Origin: an uncultured Nannocystaceae bacterium
GTDB taxonomy: Bacteria > Myxococcota_A > Bradymonadia > UBA7976 > UBA1532
Length of the DNA stretch: 60,328 nucleotides
Direction: 5' to 3'
NCBI GenBank assembly: GCA_964384025.1
Contig: CAYLJJ010000029.1
Coordinates: forward strand, 1 to 60,328
The position numbers and the translations under genes were made by a program. Shown here piece by piece: positions 44,214 through 60,328 of this stretch. Position 1 is the first letter of the stretch; the number at the start of each line of letters is the position of its first letter. The notes beneath the pieces are model-generated. The model had not been told where the DNA came from. It did not search any database and saw only the letters and a program-made list of their open reading frames with translations.

Positions 44214-45920
44214 TCAGCGCTCCTCAGCAAACGGCAATATGTCAGGGGTGATGAAGCCCGGCGTACTGTAGGTTTGTCGGCGACCGTTCATGTCGAAGCT
44301 GGCCTCAAGAGTGTAGAGGCTGAAGCCAGCATCTGGCGCTTCAAGCGCGACAACGAAAGTGCCATCTGGCTCTGGTTCCAGTAAGCGGGCTGACCAAATC
44401 TCACCCACGAGAGCAAAGCGGAAGTCTCGAGCTTCGGGGTTAGTCGCGACCCACAGTTTGACCTCATCGGGTGGTGGAGCAGCGGAGAAGGTCAATACAT
44501 CACCATCACGGCTCCAACTCATCTGTGGGCGGGGCTGCCCTTCGACCACCGCGCGGAACCATGGAACGACCGTCGCGAGCACATCGCTGATCGCCTCATT
44601 AAGCGAGTGACCAGTGTTGGCAAACTGCCGGTAGACAGTCTCTCCGGGCAGCTCGTCGAGATATAGCGACGCCGCATCGGGTAGGAAGAATTCATCACCC
44701 GCTGCGGTGAGGATCAGCTTGGGCATGGTCAGTCGATCGAGATATGAGATGGGATCAACGATCGCCAAGAGCGCCTCGCTTTCGGGGCTGCCTAAGCGAG
44801 CGATGACGCCCTGCTCGACATAATCTGCGATCGCCTCAGAGTAGAATCCATAGGCTTCAAAATGGCGTTCAATCTGTAACCCCATATGCAATACATCAAA
44901 CACCCCAGGCGCGATGGCGCGCACTCGATCATCATAAATGCCGGTCAGCCACGTTGTCGCCCCGCGCTTTGAGAACCCAGTTACGATCACATCCTGGACT
45001 TCAACCCCCTCAAGCTCATCGTCAAACTCCTGCACTGCGTCAATGCTACGTACCACCGCTTTTGTCATCGGTAGGTAGGCTGGCCAAGTAGGATCACCTG
45101 TCTCCATCATCTTGTTCCAGGTCCAGGCGACGAGCGCATCTTCGCTGTAGGGCTCACCAACATCAGAGAAGATCAATGGTTGGCTGGGGATTTGGGATAT
45201 GTTGATGACCACCGCCTGCATCTGAGTGCTGAGCAAGAAGCCAAGCTGTATAGCGTCCTCGTCAAGCTGCGCATCGGGGCTGGGATGACTGCTGCCGCTG
45301 ATGATCACCAACGCGGTGTCAGTTGAGACTAACGGGGGCACGATAATTGAGACTTCATGGGTCCAGATGGTTCGATTCACCTCCTCCTCAGTACGCCATC
45401 GCTGACTATCAACCAGCAACAGATAGGCTTTATAGGTGGGGGTAAGCTCTTCATCGATGAGCTGCCAGCCAAAGGTTTCATCATCGGCGCGTATATAGTC
45501 GCCGAGCGGTCCCTCAAGCGGAGGGCGTGTCGGAGAAGGCTCAGCGTCGAGGATCTCTCCAGTGTCAAGGACCTGCCCTAAATCAAGGGTCTGCCCTGAG
45601 TCGAGGGCCTGCCCTGAGTCGAGGGTCTGCCCTGAGTCAAGGATCTGCCCTGAGTCGAGGATCTGCCCTGAGTCGAGGATCTGCCCTGAGTCGAAGGTCT
45701 GCCCTAGATCAGGGGTCTGTCCTAGATCAGGAATCTGCCCTAAATCAGGTTGCGATATGACTACATCAGGCTGCGGTGCTGTTGTGTCTGATGTTGAGCC
45801 ATCGCTGGATCCATCACAGGCGAGGAAGCCACCAGACAGTACAAAGATCGTCAAGAGTGTTCGGATAGAATTGAAGCTGTGCATGTCGGGTGCATAGCTT
45901 GGTTGATGGAGAGCGGTCAA
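44214..45920 (-). CDS. secreted lipoprotein with N-terminal 6-aa tandem repeats and a C-terminal hydrolase-like domain (possibly PqaA/PhoPQ-related family)
   Basis: 568 aa. The lipobox FLAC follows an N-terminal hydrophobic stretch. About 11 x (L/P)D(S/L)GQ(I/T) repeats. The C-terminal globular domain has GFSKRGATTW. The family name is uncertain. Confidence 0.45.
   Translation of the reverse strand: MTALHQPSYAPDMHSFNSIRTLLTIFVLSGGFLACDGSSDGSTSDTTAPQPDVVISQPDLGQIPDLGQTPDLGQTFDSGQILDSGQILDSGQILDSGQTLDSGQALDSGQTLDLGQVLDTGEILDAEPSPTRPPLEGPLGDYIRADDETFGWQLIDEELTPTYKAYLLLVDSQRWRTEEEVNRTIWTHEVSIIVPPLVSTDTALVIISGSSHPSPDAQLDEDAIQLGFLLSTQMQAVVINISQIPSQPLIFSDVGEPYSEDALVAWTWNKMMETGDPTWPAYLPMTKAVVRSIDAVQEFDDELEGVEVQDVIVTGFSKRGATTWLTGIYDDRVRAIAPGVFDVLHMGLQIERHFEAYGFYSEAIADYVEQGVIARLGSPESEALLAIVDPISYLDRLTMPKLILTAAGDEFFLPDAASLYLDELPGETVYRQFANTGHSLNEAISDVLATVVPWFRAVVEGQPRPQMSWSRDGDVLTFSAAPPPDEVKLWVATNPEARDFRFALVGEIWSARLLEPEPDGTFVVALEAPDAGFSLYTLEASFDMNGRRQTYSTPGFITPDILPFAEER
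45550..45762. repeat. about 11 tandem copies of an 18-bp unit (consensus ctgccctgagtcgaggat on the + strand), in-frame within the 44214..45920 CDS
   Basis: Direct reading of the sequence shows the tandem copies. They generate the mirror ORFs 45527..45760 and 45562..45897 on the opposite strand. Confidence 0.85.
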
Positions 45921-52833: not shown

Positions 52834-53444
52834 AGATCCGTGTCTTTGTCGTTGAGGACCACACCATCGTTCGACAGGGCCTCATCGCCTTGCTGGAGTC
52901 CTGTGAAGATCTCCTGCTCGTCGGGGAGGAGGGGGATGGGCGCCGCGCCTTGGCGGCTATCCCGGAAGCTCAGCCCGACGTTGTGCTCTGTGATCTGGCT
53001 CTGCCGGGGCTCTCTGGCTTGGAGATCCTACAGCGCCTCCAGGAGCTGGAGAGTCCCCCCAAGGTTCTGATCCTTTCTATGTATCATGATCCCGTCTGGG
53101 TACAGCGCGCGGTGGAGGCGGGAGCCAAAGGTTATCTGCTCAAGGGGGCTGGAGTACAGGATGTGACCAAGGCGATCCGCGCGGTCGCGGCAGGAGAGAC
53201 CTTCCTCTCACCTGGGGCTCAGCGCTCCATCCATGCCAGCCCGCTCTCTCCTCGGGAGCGTGAGATCCTGACCCTTCTGGCCAGCGGTCACACCAGCAAG
53301 GAGATGGGGGGCATCCTGGGTATCAGCCCTCGAACAGCGGAGCATCATCGTGCTCGCTTGATGAGCAAACTCAATATCAATGATGTCGCTGGGCTGACCC
53401 GTTACGCGATCCGTAACGGCTTTGTAGATCAGAACCTCCGTTAG
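52830..53444 (+). CDS. NarL/LuxR-family response regulator
   Basis: REC domain ([16 protein letters not shown] ... [11 protein letters not shown]) with a LuxR HTH ([43 protein letters not shown]). The TTG at 52830 is preceded by GGAGGTGA; the ORF-track ATG is at 52812. Confidence 0.85.
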   Translation: [204 protein letters not shown]

Positions 53445-54151
53445 AGCCCCAACTTATGAACAATGATCCCTTCTGAGGCGCGCACACTCTTGAGGCACCA
53501 ACGCGCCAGCAATAGGCGTTGCCGCGCTTGAGGCAGATCTCCCTGAGATCCCTCCTCTGCCCGCATCGCTCGAACTCGAGGGACCAGATGAGAGAGGCTC
53601 ATCCCCACCGAGACAGAGACGTTGAAGCTCTCGGTGAAACCATACATCGGGATACGAAAGCTCTCATCACAGCCCGCCAAGGTCTCTGGCAACAGCCCTG
53701 TCTTCTCACTGCCAAAGAGCAGCAGGAGGGGCTCATCGATCGGGATCTGGCTTAACTCAAAGCGGGCGCGTGGCCCTGCACCAAAGACCCGCATCCCTCG
53801 TGCTCTCGCCCAGCTCATCATCGCTTCAGGGCTGGACAGGCGGTGGAGGTCTAACCAAGCGTGGGCCGCCATGCTGACTTGGCTGGAGACTCCAGGGAGC
53901 GGGAAGGCATGGCGGGCCTCTACGCTGACTACATCCTGGAGTCCCATCCCTTCCGCGCTGCGCAGGCAGGCTGCACCATTGTGGCTGTGGTAGAGATCTT
54001 CTAAACCCAACGCCAAGCTCTCCAAACGCAATGAGAGGACCTCCTGCATCCGTCTCAGGCGCTCCTCAAGCATATGGGGGGAGAGGGCCTCAATGATCGC
54101 CTCAACGGGGAGCTGATGGCCCTTAATTTCTAGGGTGTTGGGGATATTCAT
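53441..54151 (-). CDS. SpoU/TrmH-family RNA 2'-O-methyltransferase
   Basis: 236 aa. C-terminal FRIPMYGFTESFNVSVSVGMSL (SPOUT knot motif IPM.G..ESLNVS.A). Confidence 0.7.
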   Translation of the reverse strand: MNIPNTLEIKGHQLPVEAIIEALSPHMLEERLRRMQEVLSLRLESLALGLEDLYHSHNGAACLRSAEGMGLQDVVSVEARHAFPLPGVSSQVSMAAHAWLDLHRLSSPEAMMSWARARGMRVFGAGPRARFELSQIPIDEPLLLLFGSEKTGLLPETLAGCDESFRIPMYGFTESFNVSVSVGMSLSHLVPRVRAMRAEEGSQGDLPQARQRLLLARWCLKSVRASEGIIVHKLGL

Positions 54152-54388
54152 CCCGCAGGTTTAGCAGGAGCGGAGCGCTCTTTTCTAGGGGTTACGGTTT
54201 ATAGCACCGTCCTCTGAACGAAGAGAGTTTTGGCTGACGCCCAAATATCAATTCCTCCTCTTCGCTCATCGATTGCAGCCGTGTTGGAGGCTCATAGATA
54301 CCACCTCATGGCGTGGGAAAATCTGATGTAGCAGCCTCGATCTTAGGATTGGCGGAACCGGAACGAGTGGGAATCTCGGAGCGCCCGC

Positions 54389-54458
54389 AAGTGTGCATTT
54401 AAAGTGTGCACGAGTGTGCGTGCACATGTGCACTGCACACTAAATGCACATGTGACAT
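54389..54458. promoter_or_regulatory. cluster of overlapping GTGCAC / TGTGCA palindromes at the high-GC/low-GC junction
   Basis: aagtgtgcatttaaagtgtgcacgagtgtgcgtgcacatgtgcactgcacactaaatgcacatgtgacatgg contains three GTGCAC hexamers and three AGTGTGC direct repeats within about 70 bp. Confidence 0.4.
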
Positions 54459-54673
54459 GGATGTCTCACCTTGGAAAAATGGGGATTTTGAGGGTGAGGA
54501 GGGTGATGGGTACGGGGTCAAAGAATGGTGTAAATATTGCTACTGCAATTGAAGTGTTGTTTTGAACTGAAAAAAAACATTTTTGTCTCGATTTTTGATG
54601 TTTTTTTCTGGTTTATTTACTTGGGTAAACTTCTCTGAATTTCAGACACAAAAAATATAAAGGATAAAATTTC

Positions 54674-55573: not shown

Positions 55574-56213
55574 TTCAATCATGAATATGAAGAAACCAAT
55601 ATTGATATTGTTAATTACAATGCAAGTATATGGTTGTAATGTTTCGTCAGTTTACTATTTAAGTGATAATCAGGTCAAAATAATAAGATATTTGCACAGT
55701 TTGCCAAGTTGGGAGGCCGTTTTCGAATATCCTGTTGAATTCCATAAGTTTTTTATGGCTGCATATTTATTAAAATCTGTGAATGATGATGAACGAAGAG
55801 AAATTCTCGCAAATTTTGTTCGAATTGCACCTGATTATCCACCTAATAGATTTTTTGAAAGAAGATTTTATATTCTTTTAAGGGTTATGTTTGAATTACC
55901 AAACAGAATTTCGCAAAATGAAGCAAGACCTTTCCATAATTGGATATATACCGGCAATATTAGAAATAAAAAATGGTTTTCAATAACCTGGCCGGTGATT
56001 ATTGGCGCGAATAAGTCTAAATTAATAATAAAACACCCTACTTTCAGAGAAAGTTATGATGGAATGATGGAATATGACTTTATGGTTGATAGATATAAGT
56101 TTAGGTCGCGCAAAGAATTGCGTATACATCAATATTCAATACTTAAACAAATCAAGTATCCAGAGGGGCAAATGCAGTTTTTTAGAAAACAAAAAGGAGG
56201 AGAAAAAAGATGA
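55566..56213 (+). CDS. hypothetical secreted/lipoprotein (low-GC island gene 2)
   Basis: 215 aa. MNMKKPILILLITMQVYGC lipobox-like. Overlaps both neighbours, indicating an operon. Confidence 0.45.
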   Translation: MIDSIMNMKKPILILLITMQVYGCNVSSVYYLSDNQVKIIRYLHSLPSWEAVFEYPVEFHKFFMAAYLLKSVNDDERREILANFVRIAPDYPPNRFFERRFYILLRVMFELPNRISQNEARPFHNWIYTGNIRNKKWFSITWPVIIGANKSKLIIKHPTFRESYDGMMEYDFMVDRYKFRSRKELRIHQYSILKQIKYPEGQMQFFRKQKGGEKR

Positions 56214-58429
56214 CAGATTTTAAGATGTACGGGTTATCAATTATTATGGTCTTGTTTGGGTGTAGTCCAAGTATAGACTCACTATTACGATTGGATTCTG
56301 GAACTAAGGATGATTGTATTGATAGTGATGGTGATGGATTTTGCGAAGAAATAGATTGCAATGATTCAGATTATTCTATAAATCCCGATGTAATTGAAAG
56401 CTGTAATGGCGTAGATGACAACTGCAACACCCATATTGACGAAGAGACTATATCTGGAAGTGAATGTCTCTTAAAAAGAAATGGGTGTGAGTTTAGCGGA
56501 ATACATTACTGTAATTTTAATGGTAGTATTATTTGTGATGCTGAAGCCAGCATTCCAGATGAAATTTGCGATGGTATAGATAATGATTGCGATGGTGAAA
56601 TAGACGAAGGTAATCCAGGTGGTGGAGAAGAGTGCGATACAGGAGATCCTGGAATTTGTAATATAGGTGAATGGACTTGTGTAACAAATGCAGAATCTAC
56701 AGGTTTTGGATGTATTCCAAATATCACGCCTGGAACACAAGCAGAGATTTGTGATGGTGTAGATAATGATTGTGATGGTAGTATCGATGAAGATGCTGAC
56801 GGAAACCCAATCGCCACATCATGCTATACAGGCCCTGAAGGAACAAGTGGAGAAGGGCTTTGTTCAGATGGCATATGGACATGTTCAGAAGGACGTTTTG
56901 GTCCATGTATAGGACAGATACGACCTACAGATGAAATCTGCAATGGAAATGATGATGATTGCGATGGAATAGCAGATGAAGGTATGCCTGAAGAATGTGC
57001 CTGTGATCCAAATGCTAACCCTGATCCTGTATATTGTTATACTGGCCCAGCAGAAACAGATGGTGTAGGTTTATGTAATGGCGGTGACGCCATGTGCAAT
57101 GATACTACAAATCTATGGGAAGAATGTGCAGGTGAAATTCTCCCTACAGATGAGCTTTGCGACACTTTTGACAATGATTGCGATGGTATAGCAGATGAAG
57201 GGCTTGGTTTAGGAGATTCCTGTACTGTTGGCATAGGTCAATGTCAAAATACAGGCGTTGTTGAATGTGCCGCAGATCATGGCGTTAGATGTAATGCCAT
57301 AGAGCACGCTTCATCAGATGAGGTTTGCGATGGGATAGACAATGATTGCGATGGTATTATTGACGACATTCCTACGATTAATACAGATTGTAGCATGGGA
57401 ACAGGTACATGCGAAACAACTGGCATATATGTCTGCAATCTTGAAAACAATACCATAGTATGCAATGCACCTCCACCGAATTCATCAGAAGAAGTCTGTG
57501 ATGAAATAGATAATGACTGTGACGGTGATATTGACGAAGGCTTCAATGTCGGAGAAAGCTGTACAGTAGGTATCGGAGCTTGTGAACGTACTGGAATATT
57601 CGCTTGTTCGTTTGACACCACAGTCGTATGTAATATCCAACCTGGCGGACCTGGAGCAGAGATTTGTGATGGAATAGATAATGATTGTGATGGTGAAGTA
57701 GATGAAGGCTTTGGCGTTGGAAATCTATGTGTAGGAATAGGTGAGTGTTCTGATGGTCAACTTGAATGTAATCTGGTTGGAGAGGCCATCTGTAATACAA
57801 ATCCTGGTGGCAGTGCTTATGTAGAAGAGGATGACGTTTGTGATGGGCTAGATAACAACTGCAACGGAAATATAGATGAATACTACTATAGCCTTGGTCA
57901 AAGTTGTAATGAAAGTTGCAATGAAGGCGCATATGAGTGTCATCCAACAAACCAAAACAACACTATATGTAGTACTAGCCCATCTGGAAGTGAAGTCTTA
58001 CAAGAGATTTGCGACGGAATAGATAATGATTGCGACTGGCAAATCGATGAACAGGAAGATTTAGTAGCACCTCTTGCAGATGATCAGCTTGGCGTATGTT
58101 CTGGCAGTCATAAAGATTGCTCTGGGTTATCTGGCTGGACAGAACCAAACTATATAGCCTTTGTTGATATGTATGAAACAGTCGAGGTTTCATGTGATGG
58201 CCAAGATAATGACTGTGACGGCACTGTTGATGAAGACACCGACTTTCCTGAAATTCTAGCAGACAATCAAAATGGTGTTTGCGCTGGGATTGAGAAAGTC
58301 TGCTCTGGGGGAGGGTGGCAGGAACCAGATTATGCAGGCACTATCGGTGCTACATATGAGGCCACTGAGATACTCTGTGATACCCTAGATAACGATTGTG
58401 ACGGCGCTGTAGACGAAGGATGCCCTTGA
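56210..58429 (+). CDS. lipoprotein made of tandem MopE-type Cys-rich putative metal-binding repeats (low-GC island gene 3)
   Basis: 739 aa. MTDFKMYGLSIIMVLFGCSPS lipobox. More than 12 repeats ending in ...E(I/V)CDG(I/V)DNDCDGxIDE. Confidence 0.65.
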   Translation: MTDFKMYGLSIIMVLFGCSPSIDSLLRLDSGTKDDCIDSDGDGFCEEIDCNDSDYSINPDVIESCNGVDDNCNTHIDEETISGSECLLKRNGCEFSGIHYCNFNGSIICDAEASIPDEICDGIDNDCDGEIDEGNPGGGEECDTGDPGICNIGEWTCVTNAESTGFGCIPNITPGTQAEICDGVDNDCDGSIDEDADGNPIATSCYTGPEGTSGEGLCSDGIWTCSEGRFGPCIGQIRPTDEICNGNDDDCDGIADEGMPEECACDPNANPDPVYCYTGPAETDGVGLCNGGDAMCNDTTNLWEECAGEILPTDELCDTFDNDCDGIADEGLGLGDSCTVGIGQCQNTGVVECAADHGVRCNAIEHASSDEVCDGIDNDCDGIIDDIPTINTDCSMGTGTCETTGIYVCNLENNTIVCNAPPPNSSEEVCDEIDNDCDGDIDEGFNVGESCTVGIGACERTGIFACSFDTTVVCNIQPGGPGAEICDGIDNDCDGEVDEGFGVGNLCVGIGECSDGQLECNLVGEAICNTNPGGSAYVEEDDVCDGLDNNCNGNIDEYYYSLGQSCNESCNEGAYECHPTNQNNTICSTSPSGSEVLQEICDGIDNDCDWQIDEQEDLVAPLADDQLGVCSGSHKDCSGLSGWTEPNYIAFVDMYETVEVSCDGQDNDCDGTVDEDTDFPEILADNQNGVCAGIEKVCSGGGWQEPDYAGTIGATYEATEILCDTLDNDCDGAVDEGCP

Positions 58430-58760
58430 GCCTTTTTCGTTCCTTCCTGCCACTACTGCTTGTTCTCTTCCTATGCGCTTCAGCGTCTTCTCATGAACAC
58501 CCAAGTGAAGTTCAAAAAGGGGGGATCATTTCGAGCTATAACAATCCTCTATGGATTTGCTGGAGATGCTATAGGTATAGATTTCACTGAACATGAAACA
58601 TCACAGAAGGATATTCGTCGTATATTTGGATTCAATCCATGTATAGAATGGAAAGCTGGAGACAATATATATTTTGGTGCAAATTTAATATTGTTATGGT
58701 TAGACGATCCATTTTCTTATTTTGATACACGACGGTCATTGACTGAAATAGATTTATGAT

Positions 58761-58782
58761 AGAGAATTTTATTCTCTATTTG
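58761..58782 (+). terminator. hairpin AGAGAAT-TTT-ATTCTCT followed by a TATTT stretch, downstream of the island operon
   Basis: Perfect 7-bp inverted repeat with a 3-nt loop, seen directly. The T-tract after it is weak. Confidence 0.25.
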
Positions 58783-58814
58783 GAAAGAATTATGTGTATA
58801 CTTCCCTATCTTAG

Positions 58815-58936
58815 CTGAGTCCGCCGGATTTTGTGGTTAATTCATTCTAAGGGGTTACGTCCACTCATGGCTGCGGCAACAAGCAAATTCTGTAGCCAAT
58901 TCTCGTGGTATGAGAAGCCATTGATATCTTGAAAGG
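58815..58936 (+). repeat. copy 1 of a 122-bp direct repeat (CTGAGTCCGCCGGATTTTGTGGTT ... GATATCTTGAAAGG)
   Basis: Matches 60207..60328 with a single mismatch (a/g at 58840 vs 60232). Confidence 0.85.
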
Positions 58937-59614
58937 GCGAGACTCTTGAAGGATGTCGACGGCGATTACGAGGGGAGTAGGGATGGAAATTCCATATTGA
59001 GGGCCTGCGCGCGAACCATCAGGCGGGTTGATTTGATGGTTCCGTGGAAAGTATTTGTGTGCAAGTAAACGCATTCCACGTGCCTGCTGGTGAAAACAGA
59101 CGTGTGATGCTCTTTAGCTACTACTCTGAAGATACAAACATGCGTTAGGAGGCGCAATATGTACTGTTCAGTCATTCAAACTTATTGCAATTGCTTAAGG
59201 CTCGCATGCTTCATCCTAATAGGAGTTTCGTGTGTCGAAAACACTAATGATTTAGACATAAAAGGAATGTCAAAGGATGTAAGCCTTATTCATGAGCAAA
59301 AAACACCCGATTTTGGCTTACAAAATGGCGATATAAAGCATTTAGAACTTGATATTGCCTTATTAAGTCAGGAAAAATGATAGTTTTCTGGAAGAGCATT
59401 CTCAATGCGAGAACTTAGATGAGCAGGACTGCCTCACCCTTTTCACGTGTGACCCAATATATGGTGATCATCTTAATGATATTGGAGAACTTAGTTCTGG
59501 TTATATTGGCTGTCTAACATCAATAACACCTGAAGGAGATGGTATAAGCTGCAATACTGTTGCTTCTTGCACAGTAGCTACTGAAGGTTCTATTTGCTTT
59601 CGAATTCCACATGA

Positions 59615-60133
59615 TTGTCCACCAGATGGATGGAGCATCGTACATTGCGGGAGTACTCCGGGTTGTATCGAGTAAATTTTATACCTTATAAATATCTGCT
59701 CAGCCTGACTTACTGGATTGGCGGAACTCTTGCCCTTGCAATAATCGGATTACTTATTTTAATATGGTTTAGTTTTTCCCAAGAAAAAGAGGCCCCATGC
59801 GTTATTATTGCAACAATAAATGATGTAAAAATCTTCCAAAGCGAAGTTGATTTTATGCAGGCGCAGTTAATTTTGCAAGGAGGATCAGAGGACCAATATA
59901 GTGCGATGCTTGAGGTCCTTTGGCAGGAAAATGAGCGACAACGTCGCAAATTAATACCTGCTCCGACACGAGCTGATGCCCGACGGATTGCAGTAAGACG
60001 ACTTCGCCATGAACGTCTAAGTAATCATACGAATCCACAACTGAAACTTGGGAATATACCACAAAATACTCAGTTTACGGATTGTGGACTGAATATTATT
60101 AGCAAGGAAGCATATAATCGTGTTTTTCAGTAG
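59615..60133 (+). CDS. hypothetical protein (172 aa) inside the repeat-bounded segment
   Basis: AT-rich ORF with one TM-like segment (LALAIIGLLILIWF). No family recognised. Confidence 0.3.
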   Translation: MSTRWMEHRTLREYSGLYRVNFIPYKYLLSLTYWIGGTLALAIIGLLILIWFSFSQEKEAPCVIIATINDVKIFQSEVDFMQAQLILQGGSEDQYSAMLEVLWQENERQRRKLIPAPTRADARRIAVRRLRHERLSNHTNPQLKLGNIPQNTQFTDCGLNIISKEAYNRVFQ

Positions 60134-60206
60134 AATTTTAAATCCTTAATCCCTGAGTGAATATCTTAATATTTTCACAAAGAATCCTGAGTTCATCTCA
60201 TTATTC

Positions 60207-60328
60207 CTGAGTCCGCCGGATTTTGTGGTTGATTCATTCTAAGGGGTTACGTCCACTCATGGCTGCGGCAACAAGCAAATTCTGTAGCCAATTCTCGTGG
60301 TATGAGAAGCCATTGATATCTTGAAAGG
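60207..60328 (+). repeat. copy 2 of the 122-bp direct repeat; it runs to the window edge and may extend further
   Basis: See copy 1. This copy is preceded by three spaced (T/C)CCTGAGT motifs at about 60152, 60185 and 60206. Confidence 0.85.

Follow-up and report, generated by a model that had tools for sequence, protein, structure and literature searches.

What are the two near-identical direct repeats that lie at the right end of this 60,328-nt stretch of DNA (the whole of which is called the window here)? A preliminary description, made from the sequence alone, had reported a 122-nt direct repeat at 58815-58936 and 60207-60328, which we confirm (1 mismatch, A at 58839 and G at 60231), and had proposed that it reflects a tandem duplication, the ends of a mobile or integrated element, or a duplicated leader or noncoding RNA (ncRNA). 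By extending the locus beyond the window, translating the repeat and comparing it with an intact relative, we conclude that the repeats are very probably two same-orientation truncated ends of one divergent insertion sequence (IS) of the IS256/Mutator superfamily, now a fossil.

An exact look-up of a 739-aa protein encoded at 56210-58429 recovered three contigs of the same locus besides the window (L001, L002 and L003). L001 (JGI 3300009008 Ga0115649_1001620) is a 70-kb contig that runs 8 kb past the window end, and its coordinates are converted as window position = L001 position + 46209. When the comparison is carried past 60328 in this contig, the repeat similarity goes on to ~60441 and then ends; the earlier guess of a longer unit was correct, the whole unit being ~236 nt. 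Copy 1 occupies 58815-59050 (L001 12606-12841) and copy 2 runs from 60207 to ~60441 (L001 13998-14232), with a start-to-start spacing of 1392 bp. Over ~236 nt their identity is 97.5%, with one 1-nt indel, and the unit has a GC content of 50%; the differences fixed between the copies are a base change, the indel, and unlike right ends. The DNA flanking the copies, left and right, is unrelated between them, with nothing beyond chance in shuffle tests, and an apparent likeness just left of both copies (AAAGAAT...) was dismissed by such a test. The window and L001 show 3 differences over 14 kb, all in copy 1 (58960 C/T, 58971 A/G and 58978 T/C), which suggests strain variation or gene conversion focused on the repeat.

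A 24-nt probe from the repeat matches at the two copies alone (0 matches in 100 shuffles), and sensitive blastn found no third copy in the window. No match was obtained with the repeat against plasmids and phages (blastn in 'distant' mode) or with parts of it in two exact-pattern scans of viral contigs, and exact-pattern scans of metagenome and genome contigs returned at most 18-23-nt matches, judged by blastn to be chance. The features of the locus, read as an IS fossil, are as follows.

58815..59050, minus strand: copy 1, a probable truncated IS end consisting of a terminal inverted repeat (IR) and the 3' end of a transposase pseudogene (direct repeat, tblastn, family HMM).
58815..58840, no strand assigned: probable IS terminal IR of copy 1 (CTGAGTCCGCCGGATTTTGTGGTTAA), its terminus being the CTG at 58815 (likeness to the IRs of the L041 element and of the second family member).
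58842..59049, minus strand: probable transposase pseudogene fragment of copy 1 (stop codon at 58842-58844, C-terminal codons, frameshift).
59051..60206, plus strand: spacer of 1156 bp, 39% GC, not IS-derived (no match to the transposase-family HMM).
59159-59380 (73 aa) and 59630-60133 (167 aa), plus strand: orphan open reading frames (ORFs) of the spacer (no Pfam or PHROG matches).
60152-60158 and 60186-60192, plus strand: two extra CCTGAGT heptamers beside copy 2 (motif search, sequence reading).
60207..60328, minus strand: copy 2, probably the IS end of copy 1 again, interrupted by the end of the window (tblastn, HMM, DNA alignment).
60207..60232, no strand assigned: probable IS terminal IR of copy 2 (IR comparison).

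The repeat unit has stop codons in all six reading frames. Its six translations were concatenated into one protein query, and this query gave a single match, to P0046, a 411-aa protein found in two Logan contigs. On the minus strand of copy 2 (L001 14258-14043), one frame corresponds to P0046 aa 338-409, with 48 of 72 residues identical (67%; pairwise E 1e-36, tblastn E 1.3e-29), and the HMM of the P0046 family matches the same copy at model positions 344-417 (E 6e-30). The match of copy 1 is split over two frames, covering aa 347-367 and aa 364-409 by tblastn and lying at 59018-58845 and 59175-58969 by the family HMM, because copy 1 carries one extra T at 58997/58998. In copy 2 the match to the transposase is nine residues (27 nt) longer than in copy 1. 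The pseudogene's stop codon lies at 58842-58844 in copy 1 (where gene callers also place it, at L001 12633-12635) and at 60234-60236 in copy 2, in each case 27 nt from the repeat's left end. Both fragments keep solely residues C-terminal to the catalytic core and, since every catalytic residue is missing, both are inert. Searching all six frames of the window and L001 with the family HMM gave matches at the two copies and nowhere else, and thus the spacer is not IS-derived and no other piece of transposase is present; a weak tblastn match of P0046 aa 76-176 beside copy 1 (E 2.9) was rejected for lack of colinearity and of confirmation by the family HMM. P0046 is the closest relative among the best 150 family representatives, and no intact copy of the window's own IS was found, the nearest relative being 67% identical over 72 residues. 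Six-frame translation of a noncoding repeat, combined with a protein database search, is an effective way of spotting such fossils.

Both copies start at the IS terminus CTG, with the sequence CTGAGTCCGCCGGATTTTGTGG; their first 26 nt match the IR of the element in contig L041, which carries the P0046 gene, at 20-21 of 26 positions, and their left end has the family pattern CTG..CCG.CG...GTGG that is also seen in the IRs of a second family member. At the DNA level the repeat aligns, over the whole unit, with the 3' end of the L041 element in reverse complement, and for copy 2 this alignment runs 30-45 nt further, nearly to the stop codon of a conserved 301-aa gene. Copy 2 has more than one right limit, depending on what is compared: ~60441 by similarity to copy 1 and at least 60467 (L001 14258) by similarity to the transposase, while its IS sequence possibly reaches ~60487, adjoining the stop codon of the 301-aa gene at 60492. 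Each of the window's copies contains one IR, and no inverted copy of the IR is present in the window or L001, even with 3 mismatches allowed. A sharp start at an IS terminus beside different DNA is the signature of a transposition junction, not of a segmental duplication.

The preliminary description had also noted three spaced CCTGAGT motifs preceding copy 2. All three are present (60152, 60186 and 60206), but the third belongs to the repeat, whose start it forms. Each of the two extra heptamers consists of CTGAGT, the hexamer at the IS terminus, with the C that precedes it, and shows no likeness to the IR outside the heptamer; the two may be target sequences resembling the IR, or may have arisen by chance. 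In IS families of the copy-out/paste-in type, a transposase may be attracted to IR-like targets.

The gene for P0046 in L041 is a single 411-aa ORF within a 1400-bp element (1028-2427) that has 26-nt terminal inverted repeats (CTGATTCCGACGGATTTGGTGGCCAG and CTGATGCCGACGGATTTGGTGGCCAC, 96% complementary) and is bracketed by an 8-bp direct target duplication, GTACTGCC (a single example); the second contig with the gene stops exactly at the element's last base. The second family member, P0047, occurs in four marine contigs (L043-L046), where the element has perfect inverted repeats (CTGGTGCCGTCGCAGATGGTGG) and right flanks that differ between contigs. An exhaustive HMMER search revealed 1835 cluster representatives of the transposase family at E<=1e-3 and 250 at E<=1e-30, many of them fragmentary, as expected because repeats break assemblies. 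Among 35 full-length members, 26 match the NCBIfam IS256 transposase model (best E 1.6e-13), 7 match IS1249, and a few match Pfam MULE or Transposase_mut, while none of the 35 reaches a curated cut-off; P0046 itself scores 18.8 bits against NCBIfam IS256 (NF033543), for which the cut-off is 150. Scores below the curated thresholds indicate a divergent relative, not a curated IS256 member.

In the family alignment D154, D216 and C237 are invariant and H240, N328 and D331 near-invariant, with a D...D gap of 62 aa, a CxxH motif 21 residues past the second D, and an N-x-x-acidic motif ~115 aa further on. In a HMMER alignment these motifs fall on the second catalytic D, the CIVH and the TTNTIE of ISCth4, an IS256-family transposase of solved structure (PDB 6xg8); the underlying PDB profile match is weak (E 0.095) and served motif alignment, not proof. 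The corresponding residues of ISCth4 are D175/D241/E348 together with C262/H265, and this element makes 8-bp target duplications (PMC7780238). The P0046 family is a large divergent transposase family of IS256/Mutator type that is missed by current Pfam and NCBIfam models.

IS256-family elements are characterized by a single DDE transposase of ~400 aa (RNase-H-like core, C/DxxH motif in the insertion domain), IRs of ~20-30 bp and target duplications of 8-9 bp. Compared with the IS256 family (IS256, ISCth4; PMC7780238), the L041 element is alike in encoding a DDE transposase of ~400 aa with the D...D and CxxH features, in its 26-nt IRs and in its 8-bp target duplication, and the spacing from D to C in the P0046 family is the same as that of D241/C262 in ISCth4. 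The differences are that the third catalytic position of the P0046 family is D, not E, and that the subterminal TGTAAA motif noted in the terminal inverted repeats of IS256-family members (PMC7780238) is missing, by reading of the sequences, from CTGAGTCCGCCGGATTTTGTGGTTAATTC and from the IRs of L041 and L043; the window, moreover, holds merely a dead 236-nt end, twice. The IS1249 subgroup is linked to the family by the HMM matches already mentioned. With eukaryotic Mutator-like elements (MULE PF10551, Transposase_mut PF00872), which a few members match weakly, the family shares the logic of the DDE plus CxxH core, but these matches are very distant and the architecture of the P0046 family is that of a prokaryotic IS.

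The evidence that carries our reading is the homology of the repeats to a transposase C-terminus and to the IR, their sharp start at an IS terminus, and the lack of other transposase-like sequence in the window and L001. Each fragment would consist of one IR, next to which the minus strand carries the final ~65-75 codons of the transposase gene and its stop codon; both would have lost the second inverted repeat along with the transposase N-terminus and the catalytic residues (D, D, CxxH and D/E), and would accordingly be immobile and noncoding. Bacterial genomes often contain solo IS ends and pseudogene fragments derived from ISs, and these break short-read assemblies. The window's copies resemble them in being truncated, frameshifted and non-autonomous, in lying at the edge of a foreign-looking island, and in having contig ends inside them; the pair is unusual in the near-equal lengths of its members, their same orientation and their separation of 1.39 kb. 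A repeat that seemed puzzling at a contig edge would thus be ordinary IS debris, of little biological weight.

How the pair arose is less clear. With a chance a little short of even, two separate insertions 1.39 kb apart would each have been deleted later from inside. A more tentative scenario, somewhat doubtful, is that copy 1 derives from a longer, copy-2-like fragment via homologous recombination that brought in the 1.16-kb spacer; the converse does not hold, because copy 2 retains at least 27 nt more IS sequence and is therefore not derivable from copy 1. Several features run against the explanation of the pair as truncated IS ends: independent truncation accounts neither for the near-equal fragment lengths nor for the 1392-bp spacing, which is near the 1400-bp length of the related IS; the two extra CCTGAGT motifs by copy 2 do not follow from it either; and the strong plus-strand fold of the repeat (z -3.6) is not predicted for a decaying pseudogene. 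The lack of an intact copy of this IS and the family's scores below the NCBIfam IS256 cut-off count against it too.

The repeats belong to a low-GC island of 6.2 kb, from ~54.2 to ~60.44 kb, with 32-44% GC in a window that otherwise has ~56-58% (~56% up to 54.0 kb); in L001 the GC content is back to 55-60% directly after copy 2. It is bordered on the left by a SpoU-type methylase gene (53441-54151, minus strand) and on the right by the conserved 301-aa gene (L001 14283-15188, minus strand), whose best named homologue is from Persicimonas caeni (59% identity), which makes a Bradymonadia-like, marine bacterium the probable host. Copy 1 is inside the island, copy 2 forms its right edge, and the GC content of the spacer (39%) equals that of the surrounding island; the IS fragments mark where this low-GC stretch of orphan genes ends on the right. 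No synteny was found around the homologues of the 301-aa gene in the closest relative (77% at the amino acid level, L038), in Persicimonas caeni (L039) or in L040. Searches of the island ORFs against Pfam and PHROGs gave MopE repeats as the sole match and no phage-like protein, and the 167-aa spacer ORF (59630-60133) has no homologue but itself. The orphan ORFs of the island have signal-peptide or transmembrane-like N-termini, and there are no mobility genes beyond the two IS fragments. The MopE match is in the 739-aa protein (56210-58429, plus strand), which has ~10-12 putative metal-binding repeats of MopE type (Pfam PF11617, E 3e-47) with the motif C-x-DG-x-DNDCDG-x-x-DE; at the DNA level these form a 53-nt repeat family with 168-258 nt spacing. 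In L040 a MopE-repeat protein likewise neighbours the homologue of the 301-aa gene, there at normal GC content.

Two of the broader possibilities concern the fragments themselves: that the 236-nt sequence was exapted as a folded plus-strand RNA, or that the 1.16-kb spacer is a cassette of orphan genes captured by recombination; a third, separate from these, is that the transposase family forms an unnamed clade of the IS256 superfamily. We regard this set of proposals as quite unlikely. Exaptation would mean that two 97.5%-identical copies were kept without an intact IS, as an RNA antisense to the old transposase 3' end; the unnamed clade would comprise ~1800 cluster representatives with D as third catalytic residue and no curated model.

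Read purely as RNA, the two copies would be plus-strand genes for a structured ncRNA or for an RNA exapted from the IS end; we consider this very unlikely. For the 236-nt plus strand the predicted folding energy is -88.8 kcal/mol (z -3.6; none of 200 shuffles does as well), against z -1.2 for the minus strand; 4 of 5 stem substitutions among three sequenced versions stay paired as G-U, and the copies are 97.5% identical though no intact IS is known. That share of wobble-keeping transitions (4 of 5) is not significant, however, and the homologous IS end in L041 folds like shuffled sequences (z -0.29, in one distant homologue), with ~30 of 76 predicted pairs broken and an unfavourable covariation term (+2.1). 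The stems that the preliminary description named do occur in the minimum-energy fold, but the homologous element does not keep them: the TTCTC/GAGAA stem falls in the conserved codons of NGFSYHxNW and is broken in L041. The Rfam search that had been called for matched no known RNA (no match in the whole window at the gathering threshold, and noise alone at E<=10 over 58600-60328), and neither a promoter nor a terminator frames the repeat unit. The proposal of a duplicated leader or ncRNA is not supported, given the lack of an Rfam match, the lack of paralogous downstream genes, and a fold that is not kept in the nearest IS end; the predicted plus-strand fold itself appears unexplained and without support from conservation.

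Site-specific integration would give the direct repeats as attL and attR, flanking a 1.39-kb element or the island, and would suit both the foreign-looking low-GC DNA between them and the position of copy 2 exactly at the boundary of island and chromosome. We judge it highly improbable: the spacer and island contain no integrase or recombinase (Pfam, PHROGs), ARAGORN found no tRNA or tmRNA, the left edge of the island has no copy of the repeat, and what is repeated is part of a transposase gene together with the inverted repeat of an IS. The same observations bear on the earlier suggestion of the ends of a mobile or integrated element. Its mobile-element origin stands, but the repeats are not two ends bracketing a 1.27-kb segment, since the same end occurs twice in direct orientation; against the bracketing are the missing inverted partner end, integrase and tRNA.

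It is similarly improbable that the assembler duplicated or mis-joined one IS fragment. The window and the contigs of two other assemblies do end inside the repeat, and L001 alone spans copy 2 into the chromosome, but three sequences obtained from separate samples and assemblies (the window, L001 and L002) agree in the order copy 1, spacer, start of copy 2, and the copies are distinguished by their fixed differences (base change, indel, different right ends). Still less credible is a MITE-like non-autonomous derivative or a composite transposon, with the repeats as ends bracketing the 1.27-kb segment: although the repeats contain a genuine IS inverted repeat and their 1392-bp spacing is near the 1400 bp of the L041 element, the two copies represent a single end facing one way, the IR search with 3 mismatches allowed found no inverted partner in the window or L001, a target-site duplication is absent, and the spacer contains no transposase-like sequence. 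A tandem duplication of a 1392-bp unit, partly visible owing to the window end, has a negligible probability in spite of the direct orientation and of the sequence past 60328 that the preliminary description could not see, because unrelated sequence follows both copies in L001 (similarity stops ~236 nt into copy 2, and the 200 nt after it have no similarity to the DNA after copy 1), and copy 2 holds at least 27 nt more IS sequence than copy 1.

L002 ends at the window's last base (60328), 122 nt into copy 2, and L003 ends at window position 58938, 124 nt into copy 1; the window stops inside copy 2 because short-read assemblers break at the repeat. The ends of contigs from independent assemblies indicate that the repeat and its IS family fragment short-read metagenome assemblies, and the source IS belongs to a sizeable IS256-like family outside current Pfam and NCBIfam models. 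The ends of L042 and L046 are likewise inside or exactly at the ends of IS sequences. Two other repetitive features were seen in the window. At the left edge of the island, an intergenic segment (54385-54460) contains a dense cluster of the short palindromes GTGCAC / GTGTGCA. At 45546-45741 there is an 18-nt tandem repeat of 10.9 copies (consensus GTCAAGGATCTGCCCTGA, 83% matches), which yields six of the window's CCTGAGT matches and is unrelated to the IS.
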